From positions 4,603-68,602 of the forward strand of contig JBAZSC010000003.1 of NCBI GenBank assembly GCA_041662665.1: a DNA stretch of 64,000 nt, written 5' to 3'. Positions 27,226-43,400 of the stretch are shown here, in pieces; within the stretch, counting starts at the first letter, position 1, and the number at the start of each line of letters is the position of its first letter. This DNA comes from Patescibacteria group bacterium (lineage in GTDB: Bacteria > Patescibacteriota > JABMPQ01 > JAQVVF01). Both the position numbers and the translations under genes were made by a program. Under the pieces are notes generated by a model. That model saw only the letters and a program-made list of their open reading frames with translations. It made no database searches and was not told the origin of the DNA.

Positions 27226-27987
27226 ATGCGAAATAAATTAATAGTTGGTAATTGGAAAATGAATTTGACTTTGGAGGAAGCTCGAAGGCTGACTTTGGAT
27301 ATTCGTCAAGGATTAACAAATTTGAGCGAAAAAGTTGAAGTTGCAGTTTGTCCATCATTTGTTCATTTAGCTAACGTTCATTATCAATTGCCATCAAGTA
27401 TAAAATTAGGATCGCAAAATGTTTTTTGGAAAAGTAATGGAGCATATACTGGCGAGATTTCTTGCGATCAACTTTTAGATTTGGGTTGTTCATATGTTAT
27501 TGTTGGTCATTCTGAAAGAAGAAAAAATTTAAGAGAAACTGATGATATGGTTAATGACAAAGTTTTAGAATGCATGCAAAAAGGATTAAAACCAATTATT
27601 TGTGTTGGTGAAACAAATGACGAAAAAGAAAAAAATATGACAGAAGAAAAAGTGACTCAACAAGTTGAATTAGCATTAGAAGGTGTGAAAAGCAAAGATG
27701 TTATAAATATTACAATTGCATATGAACCGATTTGGGCGATTGGTAATTCTAATCCAGCAGAGCCATCTGATGCACAAGCTGTAATTTCAAGAATAAGAGA
27801 TATCTTGAAAAATAATTATTCAGAAAAAGAATCAGAAATGATAAAAATTTTGTATGGAGGAAGTGTGAATCCACAAAATATTGCATCTTTTGTTTTGGAA
27901 AAAGATATTGATGGTGCTTTGGTTGGAGGAGCAAGTATCAAAGCAAATGAATTTGTGGGTATAGTCAAGCAAGTTTTAAAAATATAA
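27226..27987 (+). CDS. tpiA: Triosephosphate isomerase
   Basis: LIVGNWKMN, HSERR, AYEPIWAIG, GGSV motifs. Confidence 0.94.
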   Translation: MRNKLIVGNWKMNLTLEEARRLTLDIRQGLTNLSEKVEVAVCPSFVHLANVHYQLPSSIKLGSQNVFWKSNGAYTGEISCDQLLDLGCSYVIVGHSERRKNLRETDDMVNDKVLECMQKGLKPIICVGETNDEKEKNMTEEKVTQQVELALEGVKSKDVINITIAYEPIWAIGNSNPAEPSDAQAVISRIRDILKNNYSEKESEMIKILYGGSVNPQNIASFVLEKDIDGALVGGASIKANEFVGIVKQVLKI

Positions 27988-27998
27988 TAACTAATAAC

Positions 27999-28108
27999 CA
28001 AATCCCAAATTCCAAACAAATCCCAAATTACAAATTACAAAAATGACGATAGCTTGTAATTTGTGTTTTGTGGATTGTAATTTGTTTGGAATTTGGAGTT
28101 TGTAATTT
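27999..28108. repeat. Palindromic intergenic element, family B (caaatcccaaattccaaacaaat...acaaattacaaa / ttgtaatttgt...tttggaatttgg)
   Basis: Long imperfect inverted repeat between tpiA and fba. Copies at 38306-38428 and 59791-59900. Confidence 0.65.
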
Positions 28109-28110
28109 TT

Positions 28111-28950
28111 ATGTTAATTTCATCTCAGATCTTATTAAAAAAAGCCCAACAAGAGCATTATGCTGTTGGTGCTTTTAATACTTCAGATTTAGAAATTACA
28201 AAAGGAATTGTGAGCGCTTCTGAAGAGATGAATTCGCCAATTATTTTACAAACTTCTGAGGGAGAAATTGTGCATTCTGGCAAAGATATTTTTTTTAATG
28301 CAATGAAAATTTTTGCAGAAAAATCTAAAACTCCAATTAATTTAAATTTAGATCATGGAAAAAGTTTTGAAATGTGCAAATGGGCAGTTGATATTGGCTA
28401 TAATTCTGTAATGATTGATGGTTCAAAATTATCTTTAGACGAAAATATTAAATTAACAAAACAAGTAGTCGATTATGCTCATGAAAGAAGCGTTGTTGTT
28501 GAAGGCGAAATTGGTCTTGTGCCAACACCTGATAAAGGCGAAGAAGTAAAAATCTTAAAAGCTGATCCAAATGAATGTAAAAAATTTGTTGAAGAAACTG
28601 GTTTGGATTTTTTGGCTGTTGGGATTGGCAACGTGCATGGTGAGAACAAAGGAAAGCCAATTTTGGATTTTGAAAGATTAAGTGAAATTTGTAAAGTTGT
28701 TAGTATTCCTTTGGTTTTACATGGTGGTTCAGGAATTTCTGATTTGGATATTAAAAAAGCAATAAGTATGGGAATTTGTAAAATTAATGTTAATACTGAA
28801 CTCCGGCAAGCATTTGTAAAATCTTTGCGTGAATCTTTGGAAGATGAGGACGTGATCAAGCCTTATGATATTATGGAGCCAGTGGAAGATGTGATCAAAA
28901 AGGTTGTTGAGAAGAAGATCGAGATTTTTGGATCTAAAAATAAGATATAA
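28111..28950 (+). CDS. fba: Class II fructose-bisphosphate aldolase
   Basis: LLKKAQQEHYAVGAFN..., LDHG, VEGEIG, LHGGSG class II aldolase motifs. Confidence 0.88.
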   Translation: MLISSQILLKKAQQEHYAVGAFNTSDLEITKGIVSASEEMNSPIILQTSEGEIVHSGKDIFFNAMKIFAEKSKTPINLNLDHGKSFEMCKWAVDIGYNSVMIDGSKLSLDENIKLTKQVVDYAHERSVVVEGEIGLVPTPDKGEEVKILKADPNECKKFVEETGLDFLAVGIGNVHGENKGKPILDFERLSEICKVVSIPLVLHGGSGISDLDIKKAISMGICKINVNTELRQAFVKSLRESLEDEDVIKPYDIMEPVEDVIKKVVEKKIEIFGSKNKI

Positions 28951-28971
28951 AATTGCTCAAATAAAGTTAGT

Positions 28972-29976
28972 ATGTCTAAAACAAAATTTTTAGAATTAAT
29001 CAATTTTTTACAAAAAAACCATAAAGTTTATGGGCCTGTTTTGGATCTGGCAAGCAGATTATTAGTTCGCGAAATAAAAAATCCAGAAGATTTGGTTTTG
29101 AATGGCAGATTGACGCATTATTCTTTTAAAAATTTCTTTTTACCAGCTTGTGAATCTTTGTTTGATTATGATCATCAAAAATTAAAAGAGACAAATTATA
29201 GTTATAAAAAACAAGCAATTGTTGGAATGACAATATCTGATTTAAAAGCATTAGAATTGTATGATCAGGTTTTTGCTAAAGATCCATATTATCAAGAAAG
29301 AAGAAGACAGACTCTGGTGATTGGATATGGTTTGGCGGGCGAAAAAAGTTATTCAGAAGAATTAATTTATGAACAAAAATTTGAGGAAGATATATTAGAA
29401 CATGTTAAATTTGATGTCTTTCTCGAATTAGAATCTAATACGACTAATAAAATCTCTAATGACTTTTGTCACGTTTTTGCTGGATCTGTTGAAGGACAGA
29501 AAGTTTTGGATGGTTTTGGATATAAAGATTATAAAAATATAAAATATGTTGGGCCTATTAAGGAGAACGGTTTAGATAAGACAATGGTCGCTGTTTTTAA
29601 CAAGATGAAAAAGGGTTATGCAAAAAAGATTTGGGAAGATATTGGAAAAAGATGTATAGAATGCGGACAATGCACTTTGGTTTGTCCGACTTGCTATTGT
29701 TTCAGAATTGATGACGAACCAAGTTTAGATAAAGGTAAAGGTAAAAGAATAAGATGTTGGGATGCATGCATGTATCATGAATTTTCAGAAATTTCTGGTA
29801 AGACTAGATTATTGAAAAATACTGAACAGAGAATGTGGTTTTGGTTTTATCATAAATTTGTGAGAATCCCATTCAAATATAAAATACCAGGATGCGTGAA
29901 ATGTGGGCGATGTTCAAGAGTTTGTCCGGTCGATATTGATTTTATGAAGGTTTTGCAGGATGTATTAAAGAGTTAA
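28972..29976 (+). CDS. [NiFe] hydrogenase group 3b-type (sulfhydrogenase-like) beta subunit, 4Fe-4S dicluster protein
   Basis: Two ferredoxin-type motifs CIECGQCTLVCP and CVKCGRCSRVCP. Sits upstream of the FAD/NAD and small/large subunit genes. Confidence 0.7.
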   Translation: MSKTKFLELINFLQKNHKVYGPVLDLASRLLVREIKNPEDLVLNGRLTHYSFKNFFLPACESLFDYDHQKLKETNYSYKKQAIVGMTISDLKALELYDQVFAKDPYYQERRRQTLVIGYGLAGEKSYSEELIYEQKFEEDILEHVKFDVFLELESNTTNKISNDFCHVFAGSVEGQKVLDGFGYKDYKNIKYVGPIKENGLDKTMVAVFNKMKKGYAKKIWEDIGKRCIECGQCTLVCPTCYCFRIDDEPSLDKGKGKRIRCWDACMYHEFSEISGKTRLLKNTEQRMWFWFYHKFVRIPFKYKIPGCVKCGRCSRVCPVDIDFMKVLQDVLKS

Positions 29977-30076
29977 TCGTTGATTTATAAAATGCTTGTA
30001 ACCACAAAGGCACAGAAAATTTTAAGACACAAAAAATGTTAAATTTATTTAGTGTCTTCGTAGATTTTGTGTTTTA

Positions 30077-30943
30077 GTGGTTGCAATGGTTATATCAATT
30101 ATGCTAAATTCGTATAAAACAAAACTTGTAATTATAAAAAGAGTAATTAAAGAATCTTCTGATGTAAAAAGATTTGTTTTAGAATTTGAAAATAAAGTCG
30201 ATCAAGAAAATTTTGATTTTATTCCAGGACAATTTATTAAAGTCTCAGTTCCTGGATTATGCGATGCGCCGTTTACTTTTGGAACAAGCCCAAAAAACAA
30301 AGAAAATTTTGAAATTGCTGTACGAGGAGTCGGAAATTTAACTAATTTTTTGAATCGAATGCAAGTTGGTCAGAAATTAGGAATTAGAGGGCCGTATGGG
30401 AATGGATTTCCAATGGATATAATTAAAAAAAGAAATGTTTTGATTGTTTCTGGAGGTTGCGGATTTGTGCCTTTTAAATCAATTATTGAAGATTATTTAA
30501 TAGATAAAAAAAATTATCAAAGTAAATTCCAGATTTTTTATGGAGCAAGATCTTTTGATGATTTATTATTTAGAGATGATTTTGAAAAATGGGAAAATAA
30601 TGAAATTGAATTGAAATTAATGGTTGACAAGGGAGGCGATGCGATGTGCAAGGATTCGAAGTATAAATGCAATGTTGGTTTAGTGACAGATTTGATTAAA
30701 AATGAAAAATTGGTAGAAAAGCCAGTCGTTTTAGTATGTGGTCCACCAATTATGGTTAAGTTTGTGGTTATGGAATTAGATAAATTATCTATTCCTCATT
30801 CTGATATTTTTGTTTCGTTAGAGCGAAGAATGGAATGCGGAGTTGGAATTTGCGAGCATTGTGCAATCGGTCCTTATTATGTTTGTAAAGATGGACCAGT
30901 GTTTAGTTGGGATAAAATTGAATGGATTCCGGGAGTCGTGTAA
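30077..30943 (+). CDS. Hydrogenase gamma-like subunit: FAD/NAD(P)-binding oxidoreductase with C-terminal 2Fe-2S site (PyrK/HydG-like)
   Basis: Flavin reductase-like fold, with a C-terminal Cys cluster ECGVGICEHCAIG as in PyrK-type electron transfer subunits. Confidence 0.72.
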   Translation: MVAMVISIMLNSYKTKLVIIKRVIKESSDVKRFVLEFENKVDQENFDFIPGQFIKVSVPGLCDAPFTFGTSPKNKENFEIAVRGVGNLTNFLNRMQVGQKLGIRGPYGNGFPMDIIKKRNVLIVSGGCGFVPFKSIIEDYLIDKKNYQSKFQIFYGARSFDDLLFRDDFEKWENNEIELKLMVDKGGDAMCKDSKYKCNVGLVTDLIKNEKLVEKPVVLVCGPPIMVKFVVMELDKLSIPHSDIFVSLERRMECGVGICEHCAIGPYYVCKDGPVFSWDKIEWIPGVV

Positions 30944-31031
30944 AATTAGTAAAATTTATAAAATTAATAAAGCGAGTAATATTTATAAATTCGAAAATTA
31001 AGAAATTGAATATTATTTTAAATTTTTTAGC

Positions 31032-31247
31032 ATGTGCTTAGCGATTCCTGGAAAAATTGTTGATATAAATAAGGATGGATATTTGATTGATTATGAATCA
31101 AAGAAAGTTCAGGTTGCCAATTCTTTAATAAATAATGTAAAATTAGGTGATTGGGTAATTGTGCAAAATAGGTTTATAATTAATAGATTAGATATTCAAG
31201 ATAATGATTTGTTCTTTTCAAATCTCAAAGTAAAGGAGGAAAAGTGA
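31032..31247 (+). CDS. hypC: Hydrogenase maturation factor HypC/HybG family
   Basis: N-terminal MCLAIPGKIV (the HypC MC(L/I)(A/G)(I/V)P signature); 71 aa. Confidence 0.85.
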   Translation: MCLAIPGKIVDINKDGYLIDYESKKVQVANSLINNVKLGDWVIVQNRFIINRLDIQDNDLFFSNLKVKEEK

Positions 31248-31918
31248 TGAGCAGTAAAGAAGGATTGATTGAAGCAGCAAGATTTTCTTGGAATTGTCAG
31301 CCAGATAATAAAATGCTTTGTGATGGATTATATGGTTTTGTTCGTGGTAATGGCGGACATGATGTTGAATGGATTGAAAGGCAATTAAAGAATCTATATT
31401 CATATTTTTATTATCTTTTGATTGCAAGGCAGAATGGTATTTCTGATCCTTTTGATTTGAATGTTGTGCAGGCGCATTGGATTGGCAATGATTTGTTGAG
31501 AATTGTTAAACCTGAAGATGTAAAAAAATTACAGGCTACAGGAGAACTTAAGGCTTTGCCAAAAGAAAAAGAAATGATGATTTTATGGTTGCTGAATAAT
31601 CTAGTAAAATCAGGATCTTGTCCTCATCATAGTTTTCATGCAACTGTAAATGAAAAATTGAATCCAGATTTAATTCGTCAAGGAAAAAGATGTTTTGTTG
31701 AATGTGGCAAGGTAATAGAATTAGAAGATAATTATTTTATTGTTGATATTGATGGAAATACAAGAAAGTGTGGTTATGGTTTTTTGAAAGGTAAGATTCA
31801 AGTTGGCAATTTGGTTTTAATCCATTTGAATGAAGGTCGAAGGATTGCAGATTTGTATGAAAAAATGAGATTGGACGATTGGTCTGCTATCACAATGAGT
31901 TCTTTAAAATTGATTTAA
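31244..31918 (+). CDS. Hypothetical protein with a HypC-like OB-fold at its C-terminus; translationally coupled to hypC by an ATGA overlap
   Basis: C-terminal ...ECGKVIELEDNYFIVDIDGNTRKCGYGFLKGKIQVGNLVLIHLNEG parallels the HypC core (G.V..I......A.VDfgG..r.v....v...vGDyVLVHvG) but lacks the N-terminal Met-Cys. N-terminal 130 aa is novel and Cys/His-bearing. Confidence 0.4.
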   Translation: MMSSKEGLIEAARFSWNCQPDNKMLCDGLYGFVRGNGGHDVEWIERQLKNLYSYFYYLLIARQNGISDPFDLNVVQAHWIGNDLLRIVKPEDVKKLQATGELKALPKEKEMMILWLLNNLVKSGSCPHHSFHATVNEKLNPDLIRQGKRCFVECGKVIELEDNYFIVDIDGNTRKCGYGFLKGKIQVGNLVLIHLNEGRRIADLYEKMRLDDWSAITMSSLKLI

Positions 31919-31999
31919 TTCAGATTTCTGATCTTTAATCTTTCGATTAGAGATTTTTTACCTGCATTAAATATTTTGCGAAAATATTTTTAAATAAAA

Positions 32000-32794
32000 A
32001 TGGAACAACAAAAATTAAAAGTAGCGATGGTTTCTTTAACTTCCTGTGAAGGATGCTATTTTAGTTTGCTTGATTTGGGAAATGAATTTTTGGAAATCGC
32101 AGATAAAATTGATTTAGTTAAATTTAGATTACTTAAGGAAGACCCGCCTTCGCTCCTAGCGAATTCGGAGCTTCGGCGGGCAAAGGAAAAATATGATATA
32201 ACTTTTGTTGAAGGAAGTCCGATTTCAGAAGATAATTTTGATAAATTAATTGATTTAAGATTAAGGACGAAAAAAATGATAGTTTTGGGAGGATGTGCTC
32301 ATACTGGTGGAACGTATGCAATGCGAAATCATACAGACAAGAAAAAAGCCTGCAAATATGTTTATCCAAAAACGAATAAAAAAATTTTTAATCCTAATAT
32401 TTTAGAATTATCAAAAGTTGTACATATCGATGGGATTATTCCAACTTGTCCAGTTAATCCAAGAGAATTCGTAAGATTTATGTCTTTTGTTTTGAATAGT
32501 TTGACTTTTAAAATTACTGAGAGGCCAGTTTGTTATGAATGTCAGTTAGCGCAAACTTCTTGTTTATTAAAAATGGGATTGCCATGTTTTGGACCAATGG
32601 CTTTGGGTGGTTGCGATGCTCCTTGTCCTAGAGCAGGTATGCCATGCCAATTATGTCGTGGGCCAATGAAAGAAATACAATGGGATAATTTTGAAAAGAA
32701 AATGAAAGATATTATGGGAGCAAAAGTTTGGGAAAAAGATTATAATGAAATATTGGAAATTTTTAATGTTAAAGACAAGATAAGTGTTGAATAA
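32000..32794 (+). CDS. [NiFe] hydrogenase small (delta) subunit
   Basis: VAMVSLTSCEGCYFSLLD N-terminal proximal-cluster motif, plus C-terminal Cys motifs (CPVNP, CYEC, CDAPC, CQLC). Carries an in-frame GC-rich repeat insertion at 32143-32186. Confidence 0.82.
   Translation: MEQQKLKVAMVSLTSCEGCYFSLLDLGNEFLEIADKIDLVKFRLLKEDPPSLLANSELRRAKEKYDITFVEGSPISEDNFDKLIDLRLRTKKMIVLGGCAHTGGTYAMRNHTDKKKACKYVYPKTNKKIFNPNILELSKVVHIDGIIPTCPVNPREFVRFMSFVLNSLTFKITERPVCYECQLAQTSCLLKMGLPCFGPMALGGCDAPCPRAGMPCQLCRGPMKEIQWDNFEKKMKDIMGAKVWEKDYNEILEIFNVKDKISVE
32143..32186. repeat. GC-rich hairpin repeat, copy c, inserted in-frame within the hydrogenase small-subunit CDS
   Basis: cccgccttcgctcctagcgaattcggagcttcggcgggcaaagg, encoding DPPSLLANSELRRAKE. 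Same family as the 1571, 57534 and 62075 copies. Confidence 0.65.
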
Positions 32795-32903
32795 GTTAGA
32801 CTAGTTAGATTAGTTAGATTTGTTTCGGAAATTATGATATTCGGAAATTAACTACCCAACTTTTAGTTGGGGTTCGTCAAACTTTAGTTTGAAGTCGTAG
32901 ATA

Positions 32904-33269
32904 TTGGATATTAAGATATTAGAAATTAAATATTTTTTTATGGAAATAAAACAAGAAATTAAAAAATCAGAGGCCGTTAAAATTTTTGCTGAAAAAAATG
33001 GTGAGATTGTTGGAAGAGCATATTTATATTTGATAAAAAATGATTTGCATACAGAGCCTTATGGATTATTGGAAGATGTTTTTGTTTCGGAAAATCAAAG
33101 AGGAAAAGGTACAGGTACAAAATTAGTTCAAGCTGTAATTGAAGAAGCGAAAAAAAGAAAGTGTTATAAATTAATTGCAACAAGTAGAAAATCAAGAGAA
33201 CAAGTGCATCAATGGTATTTAAAATTAGGTTTTGAAGATTATGGATGTGAATTTAGAATAAATTTTTAA
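32904..33269 (+). CDS. GNAT family N-acetyltransferase
   Basis: QRGKGTGTKLVQAV acetyl-CoA-binding motif; about 110 aa. The start may be the internal ATG at 32940. Confidence 0.75.
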   Translation: MDIKILEIKYFFMEIKQEIKKSEAVKIFAEKNGEIVGRAYLYLIKNDLHTEPYGLLEDVFVSENQRGKGTGTKLVQAVIEEAKKRKCYKLIATSRKSREQVHQWYLKLGFEDYGCEFRINF

Positions 33270-33282
33270 TTTGTACTATTTT

Positions 33283-33392
33283 TGCCAAAAATTATTTTTC
33301 TTCAGTCTGCGGAACTCGCCTCGTTTCACTCGGCTCAGACAATCCTCGACTTCAGAAAAAAAATTTTTGGCAAAATAAATTTTTAATTTATT
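33283..33392. repeat. Palindromic element immediately upstream of the hydrogenase large-subunit gene
   Basis: Arms tttttgccaaaaatt / aatttttggcaaaa flank a GC-richer core cttcagtctgcggaactcgcctcgtttcactcggctcagacaatcctcgacttcag. Confidence 0.5.
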
Positions 33393-34700
33393 ATGTCAAA
33401 GAAAATAATAAAAATAAATCATCTAGCAAAAATGGAAGGGCATGCATCTTTTGAAGGTAGGATTTTGGCTGGAGAAATTTCAGAAGCGCATATTATTACA
33501 GAAGAAGGTGCAAGATTGATTGAAGGAACTTTAATTGGCAGACATTATTCTGAAGCGCCGACAATTACTTCTAGAATTTGCGGAATTTGTCCAATTGTTC
33601 ATCATCTAACTGCAGTTAAAGCTTTAGAGGAATGTTTTGAAGTTAAAGTTAGTTCTGAAGTTGTAATGTTACGCAAAATTTTGGAATTGGCGCAAATTAT
33701 TCATAGTCATGCTTTACATCTTTTCTTTTTGTCATTGCCGGACTTTTTGAATTATGATGATACAAAAAAAATGGCAGGCAGATATCCAAATGAAGCACAG
33801 ATGGCAATTGATATTCGAAAATGGGCAACTGATTTATGTTTGGCGATTGGAGGCAGAATTACTCATCCATTAACAAATATGGTTGGCGGATTTAGAAGAT
33901 GGCCAGAAGAAGAAAAATTAGAAAATTTCTTGGATGGATCTGGTGATATTTTAGAAATGGCATTGAAAATTGCTCAATTATTTAGAGATTTGGATTATCC
34001 AAAATTTGATAACTTGGGAAATTTTATTGCATTATCAAATGATAATGAATATGCAATATATGATGGTGAAGTTAAAGTTTGGGAAACAAAGAAAAATTTA
34101 GCTAAAAAAATATTTGGTAAAGAAATGAAAAATTACGAGGCTGTAAAATTTATAAAATTAATAAAAGAAGTTGAATTGCAAAACGAGATGGTTAAGCGAG
34201 TTAAATTTAAAAGAAAGCCATTTTTCTGCGGAGCATTAGCCCGAATAAATATTAATAAATATTTATTGAATGAAGAGGCATCAAAATTTTTGGAAACAAC
34301 AAATATTGATTTTCCTTCTAGCAACACTTTCTATAATGTTTTAGCACAGGCTGTTGAATTAATTCATTGTATTGAAGAAATTAGAAATTTATTACGAGAG
34401 CTAAAGAAAATAAATTGGTTGAATGCAAAAAATGCAAGTTTTAAAATAAAAGCAGGAAAAGGTGTTGGAGCAATTGAAGCTCCAAGAGGCACTTTGTATC
34501 ATTATTATGAAACTGATAAAGATGGATATATTAAAAATTGCAATATAATTACACCAACTGCTCAATTTTTAGCAAAGTTAGAAGATGATTTGGGTGTATT
34601 TCTTGGAGATATTAAAAATTTAACAGATCTGGAAAGAAGAAATAAAATAAAAATGATGATTAGAGCGTTTGATCCATGTATTTCTTGTGCGACACATTAA
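33393..34700 (+). CDS. [NiFe] hydrogenase large (alpha) subunit
   Basis: N-terminal RICGICPIVHH (RxCGxCxxxH) and C-terminal DPCISCATH (DPCxxCxxH) Ni-Fe ligand motifs; 435 aa. Confidence 0.9.
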   Translation: MSKKIIKINHLAKMEGHASFEGRILAGEISEAHIITEEGARLIEGTLIGRHYSEAPTITSRICGICPIVHHLTAVKALEECFEVKVSSEVVMLRKILELAQIIHSHALHLFFLSLPDFLNYDDTKKMAGRYPNEAQMAIDIRKWATDLCLAIGGRITHPLTNMVGGFRRWPEEEKLENFLDGSGDILEMALKIAQLFRDLDYPKFDNLGNFIALSNDNEYAIYDGEVKVWETKKNLAKKIFGKEMKNYEAVKFIKLIKEVELQNEMVKRVKFKRKPFFCGALARININKYLLNEEASKFLETTNIDFPSSNTFYNVLAQAVELIHCIEEIRNLLRELKKINWLNAKNASFKIKAGKGVGAIEAPRGTLYHYYETDKDGYIKNCNIITPTAQFLAKLEDDLGVFLGDIKNLTDLERRNKIKMMIRAFDPCISCATH

Positions 34701-34714
34701 TTAAATTAAAAAAT

Positions 34715-35047
34715 ATGAATAAAAATAAAAAAAATATTAGTACAGAAGGAAAAGAAATTTTAAGATTGCGTGATCTTTATAACTATTTACAAAAGCATCC
34801 AACTGACAAAGAAAATTTTTATAGCAGGATTCAGAATATGAAAAAAAAGTTAGACATTTTGGAGAAAAAGTTGAATGTTAAAGGTAAGATAATTATTTCA
34901 AAAAAAGAAAATAAGTCTTTAGAAGCAGCAATCAAAGCAGTTAAAAATAAAGGATTTGTTGATAATAAAAAAGAATTTGCTAAATTTTTGTATAATTGGC
35001 AATTATTTTTAGAGATGGAAAATAGAGTGAATAGTTTGGATAAGTAA
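34715..35047 (+). CDS. Hypothetical lysine-rich small protein
   Basis: ORF only. Confidence 0.35.
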   Translation: MNKNKKNISTEGKEILRLRDLYNYLQKHPTDKENFYSRIQNMKKKLDILEKKLNVKGKIIISKKENKSLEAAIKAVKNKGFVDNKKEFAKFLYNWQLFLEMENRVNSLDK

Positions 35048-35053
35048 AATATT

Positions 35054-35530
35054 TTGATTTTAAATAATATGAAAAAAGTTAGGGTAAAAAATAAGAAAAA
35101 TATTGGAATTGAAAAATTAGCTAAAGAAATGAGAGCTGGTTTTAAAGAAATGCATAAAGAGATGAATGCTAGTTTTAAGGAAATGCATGCTGGTTTTAAA
35201 GAAATGCATGCTAATTTTAAAGAGGTAGATAAAAGATTCTATGAGCTTTATGATTTTTTGCAAAAGCACATGGTGACTAAGGAAGAGCTTAATAATATTT
35301 TGAGTAATTATGCAACGAAGAAAGATTTACAGGAAGTTAAAAATGAGTTGATGAATACAATGGATAAAATTGTTGGTGATTATAATACTGATAAACAAGA
35401 GCATGTAACTTTTATTTTGCATTTAGACCGATTGGCAGAAATGGAAATTAAAATTGGCAAAATGGATAAAGAGATTAAAACAATTAAAAATATAATTTTT
35501 AAAGATGCACGATTTTCATGCAGCAGATAA
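35054..35530 (+). CDS. Hypothetical coiled-coil protein with tandem FKEMH repeats
   Basis: RAGFKEMHKEMNASFKEMHAGFKEMHANFKEV internal repeats. Confidence 0.4.
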   Translation: MILNNMKKVRVKNKKNIGIEKLAKEMRAGFKEMHKEMNASFKEMHAGFKEMHANFKEVDKRFYELYDFLQKHMVTKEELNNILSNYATKKDLQEVKNELMNTMDKIVGDYNTDKQEHVTFILHLDRLAEMEIKIGKMDKEIKTIKNIIFKDARFSCSR

Positions 35531-35762
35531 TATTTTAAAAACTGCTATAGAATATGCCAAAGAAAATAAGTTAAAAAAAGTTGATAAAATTAAGATTGAA
35601 TTAGGAAAATTTATTGAACATGGGCAAGAAATTTTGGCTGATAATTTAGAATTTAATATAAAAATGTTAGCAAAAGGGACGATTGCAGAAAATTGTGAAA
35701 TTGTTATTATAGAAAAACGAGGAGAAAATGGATATAGATTAGATGAAATTGAAGGAGAATAA
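35505..35762 (+). CDS. HypA-like (hydrogenase nickel insertion) N-terminal domain protein lacking the C-terminal zinc finger
   Basis: MHDFHAADNILKTAIEYAKENKLKKVDKIKIELGKF... follows the HypA N-domain pattern (MHE, IxIxxG, EILxxxxEF) but ends at 85 aa without CxxC...CxxC. Confidence 0.4.
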   Translation: MHDFHAADNILKTAIEYAKENKLKKVDKIKIELGKFIEHGQEILADNLEFNIKMLAKGTIAENCEIVIIEKRGENGYRLDEIEGE

Positions 35763-35807
35763 AATATTCGGATATTATGATATTACGGATATTAGATATT
35801 TAATTTT

Positions 35808-37025
35808 ATGAACAAAAAAACGATCAAAGATATTGATGTTAAAAATAAAATTGTTTTAGTGAGGGATGATTTTAATGTGCCAATTAAGGATAGAAAAATT
35901 TTGGATGATTTTAAGATTAGAAAAAGTCTTGATACGATTAATTATTTGATTAAACAAAATGCAAAAATTGTTTTAATGTCACATTTAGGAAAACCGAAAG
36001 GAAAGATAGTTGAGAATTTACGATTAAAACCGGTTGCTGAATGTCTAGCTGCAATGATGAATAAGAGAATTGTAACCACAAAAACACAAAAAACTGGTGA
36101 AGACTCAAAAAATGGTGTGATTTATTATTGTGATGATTGCATAGGCAATATTGTAAAGAAAACTATTAATGATGCAGATTTTGGCGATATTATTTTGTTG
36201 GAGAATGTTAGATTTTATCCAGAAGAAGAAAAAAATGATGTAGAATTTGCTAAAAAACTGGCGAGTTTAGGTGAGATATTTTGCGAAGATGGATTCGGAT
36301 CAGTACATCGGGGCCACGCCTCTGTTTCAGGAATTGCTAAATTTTTACCCGCTGTTGCTGGATTATTGCTGGAAAGAGAAGTCGATGTTTTGACAGAAGT
36401 TTTAGAAAAACCAGAACATCCATATCTAGTTATTTTAGGCGGAGCAAAAATTTCAACAAAATTAAATTTGATAAATAAATTAGCTAAACAAGCAGACAAG
36501 CTGTTGGTTGCTGGTGCTTTATCAAATACTATTTTTATGGCGAATGGCTTAAATGTTGGCGGTTCTCTTGTTGAAAAAGAAATGATTGATCAGATTAAAA
36601 CAACTGTTTTGAAAAATAATAATATTGATATACCAATTGATGTTGTAGTTGGAAAAGAAAATGGTGATAATGCGAGAATTGTTGATGTTGGAAATGGTAT
36701 AAGTAATGATGAATTTATTTATGATATTGGTCCAAAGACTATTGAATTGTTTAAAAGAAAAATTGATAAATCTAGTTTGGTTGTTTGGAATGGACCAATG
36801 GGAAAATTTGAAAATGAAAGATACGCAAAAGGAACATTTGAATTAGCAAAAGAATTAGTGAAGGTTAAAAAAGCTGTTGTTGGTGGAGGCGAGACTTCAA
36901 TGGCAATCAGAGAGTTAGGATTAGAAGATAAAATTTATCATTTATCAACTGGAGGTGGTGCTATGTTGGAATTTTTGGAAGGAAAAGAGATGCCAGGAAT
37001 AGAATGCTTGCAAGTTAAAAGTTAA
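35808..37025 (+). CDS. pgk: Phosphoglycerate kinase
   Basis: 405 aa PGK pattern (VLVRDDFNVP, ...GGGA...). Confidence 0.92.
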   Translation: MNKKTIKDIDVKNKIVLVRDDFNVPIKDRKILDDFKIRKSLDTINYLIKQNAKIVLMSHLGKPKGKIVENLRLKPVAECLAAMMNKRIVTTKTQKTGEDSKNGVIYYCDDCIGNIVKKTINDADFGDIILLENVRFYPEEEKNDVEFAKKLASLGEIFCEDGFGSVHRGHASVSGIAKFLPAVAGLLLEREVDVLTEVLEKPEHPYLVILGGAKISTKLNLINKLAKQADKLLVAGALSNTIFMANGLNVGGSLVEKEMIDQIKTTVLKNNNIDIPIDVVVGKENGDNARIVDVGNGISNDEFIYDIGPKTIELFKRKIDKSSLVVWNGPMGKFENERYAKGTFELAKELVKVKKAVVGGGETSMAIRELGLEDKIYHLSTGGGAMLEFLEGKEMPGIECLQVKS

Positions 37026-37058
37026 TAAAGTTTTTAAAGTATAAAGTAATAAATTTAT

Positions 37059-38300
37059 ATGAAGATAAACAAAATTAGAGCAAGAGAAATCCTTGATTCA
37101 AGAGGAGAGCCAACTGTAGAAGTGAAGGTCGATCTTGATGATGGAAAATTTGGAATAGCAAAAGTTCCTTCTGGTGCTTCAACAGGCGAGCATGAGGCTT
37201 TGGAATTAAGGGATAATGACAAAAAAAGATATGGAGGCAAAGGAGTAATGAGGGCATGTAAAAATGTTAATGATATTATTTCGGAAAGATTAGTTGGAAT
37301 GGATGTTTTTAAGCAAGAAAAAATCGATCGAACTTTGATAGCATTGGATGGAACTCCAAATAAATCAAAGTTAGGAGCAAACGCAATTCTTGGAGTGTCG
37401 TTGGCTTGTTGTGTTGCAGCAGCTAATTCTAAAGAAATAGAATTATATCAATATATTGGTGAAATTTTTGGGAATAATAATTTTGTTTTACCACAAGCAT
37501 ATTTTAATATCATTAATGGTGGAAAGCATGCTGATTCTGGATTGGATGTCCAAGAATTCATGATTGTGCCAAAAGCAATTAATTTTTTTGAAAAAGTAAG
37601 AGTTGGATCTGAAGTTTTTCATGCTTTGAAAGATATTTTGCAAAGAAGAGAATATTCAGTTGGTGTTGGAGATGAAGGTGGCTTTGCACCAAAATTAGAT
37701 AGCAATGAAGATGCGATTGAAACAATTTTGAGAGCAATTGAAGAAGCAGGATATAAACCAGGTGCTGATGTTAATATTGCATTGGATGTTGCTGCATCTT
37801 CTTTTTATAATAAAGAAAAAGGATATTGTTTGAATTCTGGTAAATGCATTGAGTCAGATCATTTAATAGCAATGTTTTCGGATTGGATTAGCAAATATCC
37901 AATAAAAATGATTGAAGATTTATTGGCTGAAGATGATTGGGAAGGTTGGAAGAAAGCTACAGAAAAATTAGGCGATAAAGTTCAAATTGTCGGCGATGAT
38001 TTATTTGTAACGAATATAGAAAGAGTGAAAAAAGGAATAAAAGAAAATTGCGCAAATTCTGTTTTGATAAAGCTAAATCAAATTGGAACTTTGACAGAAA
38101 CTTTTGAATGCATAAAATTAGCAAAATCAAAAGGATATGCAACAATGATTTCACATCGATCTGGTGAAACAATTGATACTTTTATTGCTGATCTTTGTGT
38201 TGGTACAAATTCCGCACAAATTAAATCTGGATCATTATCTCGTGGTGAAAGAGTATGCAAATATAATAGGTTGATGGAGATAGAGGAATTGTTGAAATAA
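37059..38300 (+). CDS. eno: Enolase
   Basis: [22 protein letters not shown]..., SHRSGETED-like, IKLNQIGT motifs. Confidence 0.95.
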
Positions 38301-38305
38301 TTAAA

Positions 38306-38428
38306 AATTACAAATCTCAAATTCCAAACAAAATCCAAATTACAAATTACAAAGTCGACGGTTTGTTTTTTGTGTTTTGTATATTGTAATTTGTTTGGGA
38401 TTTGGAATTTGTGATTTGGGATTTAATG
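38306..38428. repeat. Palindromic intergenic element, family B, between eno and gpmI
   Basis: caaatctcaaattccaaacaaaatccaaattacaaattacaaa ... ttgtaatttgtttgggatttggaatttgtgatttggg. Confidence 0.65.
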
Positions 38429-38437
38429 CAAAAACTA

Positions 38438-40017
38438 TGAATTACAAACAAGCAGTATTAATTATCCTAGATGGCTTTGGTATTGCGCCTCCAGGAAAAG
38501 GAAATTGTGCGACATTGGCGAAAATGCCATATTATAATTCTTTATTACAGAATTATACTCATACAGTAATAAAAGCTTCTGGCGAGGAAGTTGGTTTGCC
38601 TTGGGGTGATGTTGGAAATTCTGAAGTTGGACATGGTAATTTGGGAGCTGGCAGGATTTCTTATCAAAGCTTGCCATTAATAAATACAGCAATTTTAAAT
38701 AAATCCTTTTTTAAAAACGAAGCTTTGATGGGAGCAATTCATCATGTCAAGAAAAATAAAAGTTCGTTGCATATTATGGGATTGATTAGTGCTGGCGGAG
38801 TTCATTCACATATTGAGCATTTATTTGCTTTATTAAAATTAGCTAAGCAAAATAGAATCAAAAAAGTCTATATTCATTGTTTTATGGATGGACGAGATAT
38901 GCCAAAAGATTCTGGTTTAGATGCCGTAAAAAAAATTCAAAAAGAAACAAGCGGATTTTTTTCAGTAGGAAAAATTGCGACATTATCTGGTAGATTTTTT
39001 GCAATGGATCGAGATAATAATTGGGATAGAATTGAAAAGTCTTACAATACTATGACTGGAAATTGGAGCGTCGGAACGTCGGAACCAAAATTTTTTGCTG
39101 ATCCAATTAATGCCGTAGAGGATTCTTATGCTAATAAAATTTATGATGAGCAAATGGAGCCAATTGTAATTGGGACAAAGGAAAAACCAGTAGCAAAAAT
39201 TTCAAAAGGAGATGCTGTGATATTTTTTAATTTTAGAGCTGATCGAGCAAGACAGATGACCGAAGCTTTTGTCAGTGATAATTTTAAAGGTTTTAAGCGA
39301 GAAAAAATTGAGGATTTATTTTTCGTTTGTTTTACTGAATACGAAAAAGGATTATGTAAGAACATTGCATTTATGCAAAAAGAAACTCCAAATGGCTTGT
39401 CAGAAACCATTAGCAAGAATAATTTAAAACAATTTCATACAGCTGAAACAGAAAAATTTGCTCATGTAACTTTTTTCTTTAACTCTGGACGTGAAAAACC
39501 TTTTGCAGGCGAGGTACATAAAGTTGTTCCTTCTCCAAAAGTAAAATCTTATGACGAAAAACCAGAAATGTCGGCAGAAGGTGTGACAGTTGAAGCTATA
39601 AAAGCAATAAAAGAAAAATATAATTTTGTTTTGATAAATTTTGCAAATCCAGATATGGTTGGACATACTGGCAATATTATGGCAACAATAAAAGGATTAG
39701 AGCTTGTTGATACTTGTTTGAAAAAAATTATTCCAGAAGTTTTAAATAATAATGGAGTTGTTGTTTTAACAGCTGATCATGGAAATTGCGAGGAAAAAAT
39801 AAATTTGCAAAATGGTAGAATAGAAAAAGAGCATACTGCAAATCCAGTACCTTTGGTTTTGATTGGAAAAGGATTGGAGCGAAAGTCAGATAATATTGAT
39901 TTGAGTATTGAATCTTCAACTGGAGCGTTGGCTGATGTGGCGCCGACAATACTTTCTTTGCTTGGTTTAAAAAAGCCGGAAGAGATGACGGGATTGGATT
40001 TGACGAAAGTGATTTAG
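38438..40017 (+). CDS. gpmI: 2,3-bisphosphoglycerate-independent phosphoglycerate mutase
   Basis: iPGM motifs (ILDGFG, SEVGHGN, GRDxP, ADHGN). Start set at the internal ATG, because the longer ORF overlaps the family B repeat. Confidence 0.9.
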
Positions 40018-40169
40018 ATATTCGGAAATTCGGATATTAAGAAATTAGAAATTGGAAATTATTATTTAATTTAGTTCAGATATAAATTTCGTGGTAGCCT
40101 AAAATTAAAAAGTATAAATTACTTTCGAAAATAGATTCGAAAACATTAGAAAATTAATTTGAGTATTAT

Positions 40170-40736
40170 ATGAAAATAAAAATAGAAGTAAGTGCAAGGC
40201 ATATTCATTTGAGCCAAGAACATTTGGATCAACTTTTTGGAAAGGATTATAAATTAACAAAAAAACAAGGATTATCGCAAGAAGGTGAATTTGCTTGTGA
40301 AGAAACTTTGAAAGTTGTTGGACCAAAATTAGAAATTGATCATGTTAGAATAATCGGGCCAGTTAGACCAAGAACACAAATCGAAGTTTCAAAAACTGAT
40401 GGTTTTATGTTAGGCAATATTCCTCCATTAAGAATTTCTGGAGATGTAGTTGGATCAGCGCCAGTGAAATTAGTTGGGCCTAAGGGTTTTGTTGATTTAT
40501 TAGAAGGAATGATTATTGCAATGAGACATATTCATATATCGGAAGAACAGGCAGAAGGTTTAAAATTGAAGGATGGTCAAAGAGTTTCTATTTCTTGTTT
40601 TGGTGATAGAGGTCTGTTATTTAATAATGTTGTTGTTAGAGTTAATCCGAAATTTGATTTTTATTTACAGCTTGATACTGATGAGGCAAATGCTGCTGGT
40701 GTGGAAAATGGAGATGTCGGGGAATTGATTATTTAA
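40170..40736 (+). CDS. pduL: PduL-type phosphate acetyl/propionyltransferase (phosphotransacylase)
   Basis: Two tandem PduL repeats, each with a RHIH motif (SARHIHLS and AMRHIHIS). Confidence 0.8.
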   Translation: MKIKIEVSARHIHLSQEHLDQLFGKDYKLTKKQGLSQEGEFACEETLKVVGPKLEIDHVRIIGPVRPRTQIEVSKTDGFMLGNIPPLRISGDVVGSAPVKLVGPKGFVDLLEGMIIAMRHIHISEEQAEGLKLKDGQRVSISCFGDRGLLFNNVVVRVNPKFDFYLQLDTDEANAAGVENGDVGELII

Positions 40737-40744
40737 TTTCTACC

Positions 40745-40845
40745 CAGCTTTAGCTGGGGTATGTGCAACTTTAGTTGCAGTAGAAGTTTGATGAAAAAAT
40801 AAAGTTTTTCGAACCACAACTAAAGTTGGGTAGATGCTTAATAAA
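40745..40845. repeat. Tandem hairpin element (acccagctttagctggggt, gcaactttagttgc, caactaaagttggg)
   Basis: Hairpins built around a CTTTAG core. Related pair at 32838-32900 (acccaacttttagttggggt, caaactttagtttg). Confidence 0.5.
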
Positions 40846-40850
40846 TTTTT

Positions 40851-41549
40851 ATGCACGAACAAATTGGCGAAATAAGTCAAAAAGATATTATGGAATCAGG
40901 TGTTGAAAAAACTCCAGGTTTAGAAATTGCAAAAACCGAAGAATCAGAAGAAGCTGTAAAATTGTTAGACGAAATTGCAGGAGATATTGAGAATGATCTA
41001 AATATAAAAGCTGAAAGAATGATAATGCTTAGAGAAGCTTTGGGAAAATTGCGATTTAATTTTGGAGCGGAAGGCGAGACAATGACAGCTGAAGAATTAA
41101 AAAAAGTTCCTGATATGAAAGAAAATGTTGAGATTTATGAAGCTATGAAACGAGATTTTCATCTTGGTCGGGCAACACGAATTGATGAAGTTACTTATCT
41201 TACTCCAGGAATGGCAGAAGAAATAATCTTTGTTTATGATCCTGATGAAACTATGTCATTAATGAGTTTAAAAGTAATGACTGATAAACTAGCTGAAGTT
41301 TTGGGTAATGCAGAAGAAGTTAACATAAGGTTACCAAAATTAAATATTTTAACTGGAAAACAGTTGCGAAGTCTTTTGGCAAAAACTAATACTGTTAGTT
41401 TGCGGGGTTTGGATACCGTGCAGGTTGATGGAGATTTAGCGATAACTATAGACCAATGTGCTGGAAGAATTGTTATGGATGACAAGCAAATTGATAGGTT
41501 AAAAGAACTTTTTCCGAAGTTCGAATTTCGTAGAATTATGGGGCATTAA
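40851..41549 (+). CDS. Unknown-family protein, paralog 1 of a tandem pair
   Basis: 232 aa. Shared N-terminal motif (EISQKDIMESGxEKTPGLExAKT) and C-terminus (ELFPxxxFRxxMGH) with the gene at 41612. Confidence 0.6.
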   Translation: MHEQIGEISQKDIMESGVEKTPGLEIAKTEESEEAVKLLDEIAGDIENDLNIKAERMIMLREALGKLRFNFGAEGETMTAEELKKVPDMKENVEIYEAMKRDFHLGRATRIDEVTYLTPGMAEEIIFVYDPDETMSLMSLKVMTDKLAEVLGNAEEVNIRLPKLNILTGKQLRSLLAKTNTVSLRGLDTVQVDGDLAITIDQCAGRIVMDDKQIDRLKELFPKFEFRRIMGH

Positions 41550-41611
41550 TTAATAGACTGAAATTATATAACCTTTAGGTTAAAGCCAAGTAGAAATATT
41601 AAACATTTTTT

Positions 41612-42310
41612 ATGAAAGAACAATTTGGTGAAATAAGTCAAAAAGATATTATGGAATCAGGTGCTGAAAAGACACCTGGTTTAGAATTGGCAAAAACAAA
41701 AGAATTGGATGAAGTTGCAAGTCGAGCTGATGAAATTGCTGATGATTTAAAAAATGATCGAAATATAAAAGCTGAACAATTGATTGGATTAGAAGTGGCT
41801 TTGGGAAAATTGAAGGTTAATTTTGGCGCTGAAGGTGAGACTATGACAGTTGAAGAATTAAAAAAAGTTCCTGATGCAAAAGAAAATGCTAGACTTTATA
41901 GGATAATTGAAAATGCAGTTAAAGAAGGAAAGGCAATTGGGATGGAAGAAGTTACTTATCTTACTCCTGGTATAGCTAGAAAGTTAGTATCTGTTTTAGC
42001 GCCATATCAGATTGCGGATTTGTTAAATCTTAAAGTAATGACTGATGGAGTAGCTGAAGTTTTAGGTAAAGCAGAAAAAGTAAGTATAAGTTCAGCAGCA
42101 TTGGAAAAAATAACATGGAGACAATTGAATGCTTTGTTTGCAAAAACTAATACTGTTCATATGTGGGGTTTAGAAGTGGATAAAAATGATAGGAAATTAG
42201 CTAGAATTATTAATTTACATTCAGAACGAATGGTTATGAATGGTAGTCAAATTGATAAATTACATGAATTATTTCCAGATTTAAATTTTCGCGGACTTAT
42301 GGGCCATTAA
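41612..42310 (+). CDS. Unknown-family protein, paralog 2 of a tandem pair
   Basis: 232 aa, about 50% identical to 40851..41549 along the full length. Confidence 0.6.
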   Translation: MKEQFGEISQKDIMESGAEKTPGLELAKTKELDEVASRADEIADDLKNDRNIKAEQLIGLEVALGKLKVNFGAEGETMTVEELKKVPDAKENARLYRIIENAVKEGKAIGMEEVTYLTPGIARKLVSVLAPYQIADLLNLKVMTDGVAEVLGKAEKVSISSAALEKITWRQLNALFAKTNTVHMWGLEVDKNDRKLARIINLHSERMVMNGSQIDKLHELFPDLNFRGLMGH

Positions 42311-42323
42311 TTAAAGTTTTATT

Positions 42324-43400
42324 ATGCAAAAATATATACTAGTTATAAATTCAGGTTCAACTTCTTTAAAATACAAATTATTTTTAGAGACTGATTTAAA
42401 GATGATTAGATCTGGATATATTGAACACATTGGTGAAAGTGAAATTAAAGATCATGAGCAAGCTTTTGGAATAGTTTTGGAAGAAATCAAAGATTATAAA
42501 AATGATATTGTAAAAATTGGACATCGAGTTGTGCATGGAGGAACTAAGTTTGTAGAGCCAACAAAGATTGATGAAAACGTTTTGAAAGAATTAGAAGAAG
42601 TAAGTAAATTAGCGCCATTACATAATCCAGCAAATTTAATGGGAATTAAGGCATCTATGAAATTATTGCCAAATGTTTTAAATGTTGCTGTTTTCGATAC
42701 TGCTTTTCATCAAAGTATTCCAGAAAAAGCGTGGAGATATGCGATTGATGATAAATATTTTAAACAATATGGAGTGAGGCGATATGGATTTCATGGGATA
42801 TCACATGAATATGTTTGTGGACAAGTTAAAAGTCAAAAGTCTAAAGTCAAAAGTAACAATTCAAAATTAAAAATAATCTCCTGCCATCTTGGTGGTGGAT
42901 GTTCGGTTTGTGCTATTTCTGATGGCAAATCTGTTGATACTTCGATGGGATTTACGCCACTTGAGGGATTGGTGATGATGAGCAGATGTGGTGATATTGA
43001 TCCAGCAATAGTGACATATTTGCAGAAAAAAGAAAATTTAAGCGTTGATCAAATTGAAGAAATTTTGAATTTTAAATCTGGAATTTTTGCATTATGTGGT
43101 GAGACAAATTGGTTGAAAGTTTTGGAACGTGTTAAAGTTAATGATAGATTAGCAAAAATGGCTTTTGATATTTTTGTTTATAGAATAAAAAAATATATTG
43201 GTAGTTATTACGCAATTTTAGGCGGACTTGATGTTTTGGTTTTTACTGGATCAATTGGATCTGGAGATGCTTTAACTCGAGAGGCTGTTTGTGACGGTTT
43301 GCCATTTTTGGAAAATGTTGAAGTGACGGCGATTAAGACGGATGAGGAAATGATGATCTCTAGGAAAATTCTAAGCACTAAATTCGTTAAAAGCTTCTAA
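42324..43400 (+). CDS. ackA: Acetate kinase
   Basis: ILVINSGSTSLKYKLF N-terminus, HLGGG, and ASKHD-family fold. Small Lys/Ser-rich insertion (SQKSKVKSNNSKLK). Confidence 0.88.
   Translation: MQKYILVINSGSTSLKYKLFLETDLKMIRSGYIEHIGESEIKDHEQAFGIVLEEIKDYKNDIVKIGHRVVHGGTKFVEPTKIDENVLKELEEVSKLAPLHNPANLMGIKASMKLLPNVLNVAVFDTAFHQSIPEKAWRYAIDDKYFKQYGVRRYGFHGISHEYVCGQVKSQKSKVKSNNSKLKIISCHLGGGCSVCAISDGKSVDTSMGFTPLEGLVMMSRCGDIDPAIVTYLQKKENLSVDQIEEILNFKSGIFALCGETNWLKVLERVKVNDRLAKMAFDIFVYRIKKYIGSYYAILGGLDVLVFTGSIGSGDALTREAVCDGLPFLENVEVTAIKTDEEMMISRKILSTKFVKSF

Follow-up and report, generated by a model that had tools for sequence, protein, structure and literature searches.

A DUF6390 gene overlapping hypC

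We analysed a 64,000-nucleotide (nt) stretch of contig JBAZSC010000003.1 from a Patescibacteria group bacterium, here called the window, in which a gene of the DUF6390 family directly follows hypC in a [NiFe]-hydrogenase operon and encodes a helical domain fused to a C-terminal domain homologous to HypC. A preliminary description, made from the DNA letters alone, had placed an open reading frame (ORF) at this site. The ORF is there, running from 31244 or 31247 to 31918 on the forward strand, and its homologues, with E values down to 1e-150, rule out a chance ORF and identify it as a real gene. The gene, its junction with hypC and the parts of its product (in amino acids, aa) are as follows.

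31032..31247, forward strand: hypC, 71 aa, beginning MCLAIPGK (Pfam HupF_HypC, 52.3 bits); its stop codon overlaps the DUF6390 start
31233..31238, forward strand: AGGAGG ribosome-binding site, read from the sequence, inside the 3' end of hypC and 8 nt before the ATG at 31247
31247..31918, forward strand: DUF6390 family gene (ORF; Pfam PF19927), 223 aa, or 224 aa from the alternative GTG start at 31244
31247..31687, forward strand: all-helical N-terminal domain, aa 1-147, with nine helices in the secondary structure of the AlphaFold2 (AF2) model and the motifs AHWIGN and PHH
31295-31297, forward strand: Cys17, in a loop of the helical domain
31625-31627 and 31628-31630, forward strand: His127 and His128 of the PHH motif
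31688..31915, forward strand: HypC-type oligonucleotide/oligosaccharide-binding (OB) fold of five strands (aa 151-201) and C-terminal helix (aa 203-220), from Foldseek, profile versus PDB and hhalign
31691-31693, forward strand: Cys149, corresponding to HypC Cys2
31823-31825, forward strand: His193, corresponding to HypC His51

The junction of the two genes reads GTGATG: the hypC stop codon TGA (31245-31247) and the ATG at 31247 have one base in common, and a start at GTG 31244 would instead give a GTGA overlap with the same stop. A protein identical to the 223-aa product is on record in NCBI, JGI, ENA and Logan as 'DUF6390 family protein [Patescibacteria group bacterium]', and the N-terminus MSxxEGLIEAARFSW is common to the window protein and seven close homologues (40-73% identity). 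Because both the database copy and the homologue N-termini favour it, ATG 31247 is the likely start. Start-stop overlaps between hypC and DUF6390 were found in the window and in loci L006, L008 and L091, measuring 4-8 nt in related loci. Although the ATGA overlap of the preliminary description was misread, the co-expression deduced from it stands, and DUF6390 is translationally coupled to hypC.

The protein had also been called novel, in particular its N-terminal 130 aa, which proved incorrect. The window protein is a member of Pfam family PF19927 (DUF6390; 45.4 bits, E=9.3e-12, gathering cut-off 25 bits), in agreement with its NCBI name, so that its N-terminal part falls in a catalogued, though uncharacterised, family. 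The Pfam model (244 positions) spans the helical and the HypC-like parts, and a typical Chloroflexota member covers positions 4-240, whereas the window protein aligns with profile positions 37-166 only. Homology to other members extends over the full length: distant members were matched by a profile of the close relatives at positions 1-222. Within the family, the window protein falls into a small, divergent subgroup (eight close relatives) from the candidate phyla radiation (CPR), in which the loop Cys has moved from the usual 'YCG' position to Cys17.

An exhaustive family profile search returned 517 clusters at 50% identity, most of them 220-260 aa long and matching end to end, and word-indexed searches found 1,655 and 2,541 family proteins. 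Scanning GTDB species representatives with a 19-sequence alignment subset revealed a DUF6390 locus in at least 575 of them. All 80 retrieved loci came from metagenome-assembled genomes (MAGs), with hosts among Patescibacteria, Chloroflexota (Chloroflexia, Thermomicrobiales, Ktedonobacterales and Limnocylindria), Dormibacterota, Acidimicrobiia and DPANN-type archaea. A few family members are labelled 'hydrogenase maturation factor' by JGI. We found no mention of DUF6390 in the searchable literature, and nothing relevant there on HypC or hypD/E/F in Patescibacteria or on HydG/HydE with NiFe in CPR. There are also short paralogues (about 170 aa), whose genes sometimes stand in tandem with that of the long form; they combine the helical domain with a minimal hairpin that retains the C...H-x-G pair (L004 7892-8398, L012 9386-9892; proteins P0010, P0012 and P0018). 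P0018 (240 aa) is a natural fusion of HypC and short DUF6390, with both Pfam matches above threshold.

A HypC-type domain behind an orphan helical domain

The last 55 or so residues had been likened to HypC, with structure prediction or profile comparison named as the check, and both confirmed the similarity. An AF2 model of the window protein, built on eight close homologues (predicted local distance difference test score 91.3, predicted template modelling score 0.89), contained nine helices (aa 4-144), then five strands (aa 151-201), and ended in a helix (aa 203-220). When this model was compared with the PDB by Foldseek, the top eight matches were all HypC (2z1c, 3vyt, 3vys, 3vyr, 3vyu, 2ot2), with template modelling scores to the target of 0.59-0.89 and, for 3vyt, a root-mean-square deviation of 1.4 Å over 53 residues. 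A profile of 34 C-terminal domains searched against PDB sequences retrieved 2z1c (E=3e-7), 3vyr (5e-7), 3d3r (2.5e-3) and 2ot2 (4.5e-3), and hhalign matched the C-terminal domain to the HypCs encoded beside DUF6390 with 98% probability (E=1.9e-13). The Pfam HupF_HypC model (PF01455) aligned with aa 155-196 at E=1.4e-4 and 22.4 bits, under its cut-off of 28.5 bits, and TIGR00074 gave no match in the window DUF6390 protein. Overall, the C-terminus of DUF6390 is homologous to HypC, and the resemblance is far beyond chance.

In both the profile-versus-PDB and the hhalign alignments, Cys149 pairs without a gap with HypC Cys2 (RCFVECGKVI versus MCLAIPGKIV), and His193 pairs with the His of 'VIVHTG' in T. 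kodakarensis HypC, the equivalent of E. coli His51. In HypC, Cys2 serves as the essential ligand of iron, and together with HypD Cys41 it is thought to bind Fe(CN)2CO (PMC12134894). The neighbouring His51 is required for efficient interaction of HypC with HypD (PMC9002611). The DUF6390 domain had been described as lacking the Met-Cys start; it is true that the Cys is no longer N-terminal, but it has not been lost and persists as the invariant, internal Cys149.

Like HypC, HybG and HupF (PF01455, TIGR00074; 2z1c, 2ot2, 3vyr), the domain is an OB-fold beta-barrel followed by a C-terminal helix, with a conserved Cys at the start of strand 1 and a conserved His in a 'V-x-x-H-x-G' strand, and DUF6390 is likewise encoded in hydrogenase operons. 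In contrast to these proteins, its Cys is residue 149 rather than a free N-terminus, a 147-residue helical domain stands in front of it, its Pfam score lies under the family cut-off, and it occurs alongside a separate small HypC to which it is coupled. As neither the position of the Cys nor the family score agrees with HypC proper, we regard DUF6390 as a HypC variant and not as a strict member of that family.

For the helical domain, a search of PDB sequences, HypD chains among them, gave no relative (best E=0.18), and nothing significant was found by fold in the Foldseek search of the PDB. Its conserved residues stand out in an alignment of about 470 family members, in which the core positions Ile59, Ala76, Trp78 and Gly80 are 99% conserved. 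His128 of the PHHxFH motif (100%), Cys149 (100%) and His193 (99%) are the only potential metal-binding residues conserved in 99-100% of the members. In addition, 467 of 468 members have a Cys within the loop at aa 10-34, within a 'YCG' motif in 87% and as Cys17 in the subgroup of the window protein. Among the Cys/His clusters pointed out in the preliminary description, Cys17 (or another Cys in this loop), His127/His128 and Cys149 are thus conserved, whereas Cys25, Cys125 and Cys153 are not.

Hydrogenase operons and the search for HypD, HypE and HypF

To describe the gene neighbourhoods of the family, we took 10 kb on either side of each DUF6390 gene and searched all stop-to-stop ORFs with hidden Markov models from seed proteins. 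The set comprised 87 non-redundant loci (91 including redundant ones) of Patescibacteria, Chloroflexota and DPANN. A [NiFe]-hydrogenase large-subunit gene was present in 67 of the 87 loci, at a median distance of 1.4 kb from DUF6390 (69 of 91 loci, redundant ones included), and small- and large-subunit genes stood beside DUF6390 in each of the 12 loci that had precomputed Pfam labels. In 56 of 87 loci, hypC lay just upstream on the same strand, either directly adjacent (20) or in the order hypC-EamA-DUF6390 (36). The gene of this EamA-family (drug/metabolite transporter) permease lies directly upstream of DUF6390 in 51 of 87 loci, usually between it and hypC (for example, L007 7073-7999 and L004 6991-7887), and is not present at the window locus. 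Among the 91 loci, we further counted HycI-type proteases in 32, HypA in 22, NifU-Rieske proteins in 14 and HypB in 8. The linkage of DUF6390 to hypC and [NiFe] structural genes is thus tight and ancient, which supports the role in hydrogenase maturation that had been suggested for the protein.

The accompanying enzymes were group-3b-like four-subunit, minimal two-subunit CPR and group-1h-like Chloroflexota hydrogenases. Since the hydrogenase type varies, the constant partner of DUF6390 is the accessory gene set, above all hypC, and not one type of enzyme. In the group-1h-like Chloroflexota operons, the order is small subunit, large subunit, NifU-Rieske, DUF5947, DUF6084, HycI, DUF6893, HypA, HypB, HypC and DUF6390, after which come unrelated genes or an ABC transporter of the peptide/nickel type; these group-1h-type enzymes are likely atmospheric-H2-oxidising. 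A conserved protein of about 130 aa without Pfam or NCBIfam match is encoded 3' of DUF6390 in 25 loci, mostly of Patescibacteria (L007 8729-9139, L009 8786-9163, L010 8742-9113), and hhalign (81%, E=1.2e-5) suggests that it is a very divergent HycI-type maturation endopeptidase.

According to reviews, all [NiFe]-hydrogenases need six Hyp proteins, A to F, and HypC-HypD is the only known assembly site of Fe(CN)2CO (PMC12134894). As probes for the missing proteins, we used E. coli HypD, HypE and HypF sequences validated against PDB chains (HypD with 2z1d, 5.5e-79; HypE with 2i6r, 4.7e-210; HypF with 3tsq, E reported as 0 at 1534 bits). Searching every ORF of 92 related loci and the window (1.54 Mb) by phmmer gave nothing better than E=0.17 for HypD, HypE or HypF, and the HypD signature GPGCPVC had no match in the loci or the window. 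The absence of hypD from the window, noted in the preliminary description, was confirmed in this way. Whereas hypD, hypE and hypF were not detected, hypA, hypB, hypC and hycI cluster with DUF6390, which occupies the gene slot after hypC; in Chloroflexota group-1h-type operons, the run HycI-HypA-HypB-HypC-DUF6390 is followed by the operon end. The DUF6390 ORF itself has none of the HypD (PF01924) motifs CGxHxH, GPGCPVC, GFETT and PxHVS or the C-terminal [4Fe-4S] cysteines, and no HypD chain was among the 50 Foldseek matches listed for its model. Without motifs or a fold match, the N-terminal domain is ruled out as a HypD remnant.

We also inspected the HypCs linked to DUF6390 (64 ORFs, loci L004-L090). 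All retain the Met-Cys start, but only 4 of the 64 keep the His51 equivalent, a residue highly conserved in other HypCs, which is replaced by Ala (20), Gln (11), Asp (9), Tyr (8) or others; the window HypC has Gln45 at this position. The HypC-like domain of DUF6390 thus retains a His where the linked HypCs have mostly lost theirs. As circumstantial evidence, this loss fits a HypC that has given up docking on HypD.

In the window, the gene order is a Fer4_22 beta-like subunit, an FAD/NAD gamma-like subunit, hypC, DUF6390, small subunit, GNAT, large subunit, two coiled-coil ORFs and a short HypA, and the hydrogenase is group-3b-like. The members other than hypC and DUF6390 that were assigned to families are as follows.

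28972..29976, forward strand: hydrogenase beta-like subunit (4Fe-4S dicluster, Fer4_22; Pfam)
30077..30943, forward strand: hydrogenase gamma-like subunit (FAD/NAD-binding, DHODB Fe-S domain; Pfam)
32000..32794, forward strand: [NiFe]-hydrogenase small (delta) subunit (Pfam Oxidored_q6, 60.3 bits)
32904..33269, forward strand: GNAT acetyltransferase (NCBIfam GNAT-type matches)
33393..34700, forward strand: [NiFe]-hydrogenase large subunit, 435 aa (Pfam NiFeSe_Hases, 114 bits; RICGIC and DPCISCATH read from the translation)
35505..35762, forward strand: short HypA, 85 aa (Pfam HypA, 36.7 bits, profile positions 1-68 of 112)

The short HypA keeps the N-terminal Ni-binding MHD motif, and the CxxC motifs of the Zn-finger are absent. 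The large subunit terminates exactly at the His of DPCISCATH, without a C-terminal extension, so that no C-terminal cleavage is needed; this fits the absence of a maturation protease gene from the window, where HypB was not found either. The GNAT gene between the small- and large-subunit genes is conserved in this CPR lineage (also in L001, L004, L006 and L012). One of the coiled-coil ORFs (35054-35530, 158 aa), between the large subunit and hypA, contains a Met/His repeat with four copies of FKEMH (GFKEMHKEMNASFKEMHAGFKEMHANFKEV), and sister loci have unrelated small ORFs at its position. The operon lies inside a run of glycolysis and fermentation genes (27226-43400) with triose-phosphate isomerase, fructose-bisphosphate aldolase, phosphoglycerate kinase, enolase, phosphoglycerate mutase, phosphotransacetylase-like and acetate kinase genes, an arrangement kept in L001, L004 and L006.

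Proposed role of DUF6390 in hydrogenase maturation

In general terms, DUF6390 is very probably a HypC-derived [NiFe]-hydrogenase maturation factor. The explanation that we favour as a whole, with moderate confidence, is a two-domain factor of an orphan helical domain and a HypC OB-fold that holds the iron group and possibly stands in for HypD. In this model, Cys17, His128, Cys149 and His193 would form a putative Cys2His2-type site at the domain interface, which would hold an iron atom or the finished Fe(CN)2CO in the way HypC Cys2 and HypD Cys41 do in the HypCD scaffold. Since the helical domain is joined at the residue just before Cys149, it would occupy the OB-fold face to which HypD docks on HypC. 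The co-translated HypC, with its free N-terminal Cys kept and His51 lost, could then receive the iron group from DUF6390 and deliver it into the apo-large subunit, so that in these lineages HypC would have DUF6390 instead of HypD as its scaffold partner. A HypD-like adaptor had been considered in the preliminary description and is plausible; as a specific mechanism, substitution for HypD is a possibility that we put forward tentatively. In its favour are the gene slot of DUF6390 after hypC, the absence of HypD, HypE and HypF homologues from the 92 loci and the window, and the loss of the docking His from most linked HypCs. Its likeness to the HypC-HypD scaffold (3vyr, 3vys) is one of analogy only: an OB-fold Cys and a Cys of the partner domain would hold iron, and DUF6390 follows hypC as hypD normally does.

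Several points weigh against the proposed replacement. The hypDEF genes could lie elsewhere in these genomes, of which 10 kb on either side of each locus was seen. Unlike in the HypC-HypD scaffold, the partner domain is joined in cis, HypD being a separate protein of 370 aa. It resembles HypD in neither sequence, motifs nor fold and lacks a [4Fe-4S] motif or ligands, so that it would offer nothing equivalent to the redox and ATPase chemistry of HypD. Neither HydG nor HydE was found in the window as a source of CN and CO. HypC function is also thought to need a Cys at a free N-terminus, and an internal Cys may behave differently. Finally, Thermomicrobium roseum, which has a group-1h enzyme and hypD, hypE and hypF, encodes a 'HypC homolog', trd_1868, between hypC and hypD (PMC6776052 supplement). 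Were this protein a DUF6390, the family would coexist with HypDEF; T. roseum did not appear among the 120 best relatives of a Thermomicrobiales DUF6390 member.

The same T. roseum protein would suit a different explanation, in which DUF6390 is a second, specialised HypC-type chaperone for the apo-large subunit, like HybG, HoxL or HupF, and a canonical HypC-HypD-HypE-HypF set elsewhere makes Fe(CN)2CO. True HypC homology with retained Cys and His agrees with such a role, organisms often have additional HypC paralogues dedicated to one enzyme (PMC9002611), and hyp genes are scattered in some organisms. Nonetheless, we consider an extra chaperone unlikely: its Cys is internal and the helical domain would cover the face that HypC offers to its partners, a small HypC is already encoded beside DUF6390 in 56 of 87 loci, most of these HypCs are without the His for docking on HypD, and the 92 loci lack hypD, hypE and hypF within 10 kb even though hypA, hypB, hypC and hycI are there.

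Alternatively, the conserved Cys/His/Cys/His set, which resembles a simple metal site, could belong to a plain metal-ion metallochaperone, either donating iron to HypC or handling Ni or Zn to make up for a HypA without Zn-finger and for the lack of HypB in CPR. The CPR loci with truncated HypA and without HypB, and the EamA-family permease often found between hypC and DUF6390, would be in line with this. However, Chloroflexota loci encode DUF6390 in addition to a full-length HypA (114 aa), HypB and a nickel-type ABC transporter, and the conserved residues are exactly the iron-group residues of HypC, which together make a plain metal carrier improbable. Replacement of HypA or HypB by DUF6390 is ruled out, as both coexist with it in Chloroflexota. 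Least probable of all, and hardly to be expected, is a regulatory or structural hydrogenase partner that reuses the OB-fold outside maturation. OB-folds are versatile, and other OB-fold proteins appear lower in the Foldseek list, but DUF6390 is linked to accessory genes (hypC, hycI, hypA) rather than to one type of structural subunit, accompanies group-3b-like, two-subunit CPR and group-1h-like enzymes alike, keeps the specific HypC Cys and His invariant, and occurs in HypC-DUF6390 fusions.

A large family without assigned function (more than 2,500 proteins) is thereby identified as a HypC derivative in the usual position of hypD, which indicates a possible non-canonical route of [NiFe] maturation in uncultured lineages. 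If DUF6390 replaces HypD, there would be a second, simpler way of assembling the [NiFe] cofactor, which would account for hydrogenase maturation in tiny-genome CPR and DPANN and in abundant soil Chloroflexota, and would let hydrogenases be produced heterologously from fewer genes. Even the conservative reading as a maturation factor gives a domain of unknown function a testable function.

A candidate source of CO and CN appeared at related loci. HydG, which makes the Fe-CO-CN synthon of [FeFe]-hydrogenases, and HydE are radical-SAM maturases of those enzymes. The closest homologue of the window protein (73% identity) is encoded in a MAG labelled Candidatus Saccharibacteria, on the 654-kb contig CAZNOH010000001.1. 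There, two extra genes (L001 7221-9879; L011 is the same locus) stand between the gamma subunit and DUF6390 of the group-3b-like [NiFe] operon. One encodes a HypC-HydE fusion that starts with MCLTMPGK and carries CENNCSYC (TIGR03956, 280.7 bits, cut-off 254.6; HypC, 51.6 bits, cut-off 48), and the other a full HydG with CX3CX2C and C-terminal CX2CX22C motifs (TIGR03955, 612.7 bits, cut-off 312). A fusion-linked HydG inside a [NiFe] operon suggests, at the level of gene content, a HydG-type source of CO and CN for the [NiFe] enzyme, independent of HypE and HypF, in this Saccharibacteria-labelled lineage. A wider scenario, which we offer as speculative and doubt in its full extent, is a HypDEF-independent route for making and inserting Fe(CN)2CO through DUF6390, a His-less HypC and often EamA in Patescibacteria, DPANN and soil Chloroflexota, with CO and CN in some CPR coming from HydG and HypC-HydE borrowed from the [FeFe] system. 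Scanning metagenomes with this HydG, we found a HypC-HydE-scoring gene adjoining HydG on further, independent contigs, namely in L094, L097, L098, L099 and L102 (the fusion being Pfam-checked only in L097) and a contig-truncated HypC-HydE copy in L096. In L094, a [NiFe] small-subunit gene directly follows the HypC-HydE/HydG pair.

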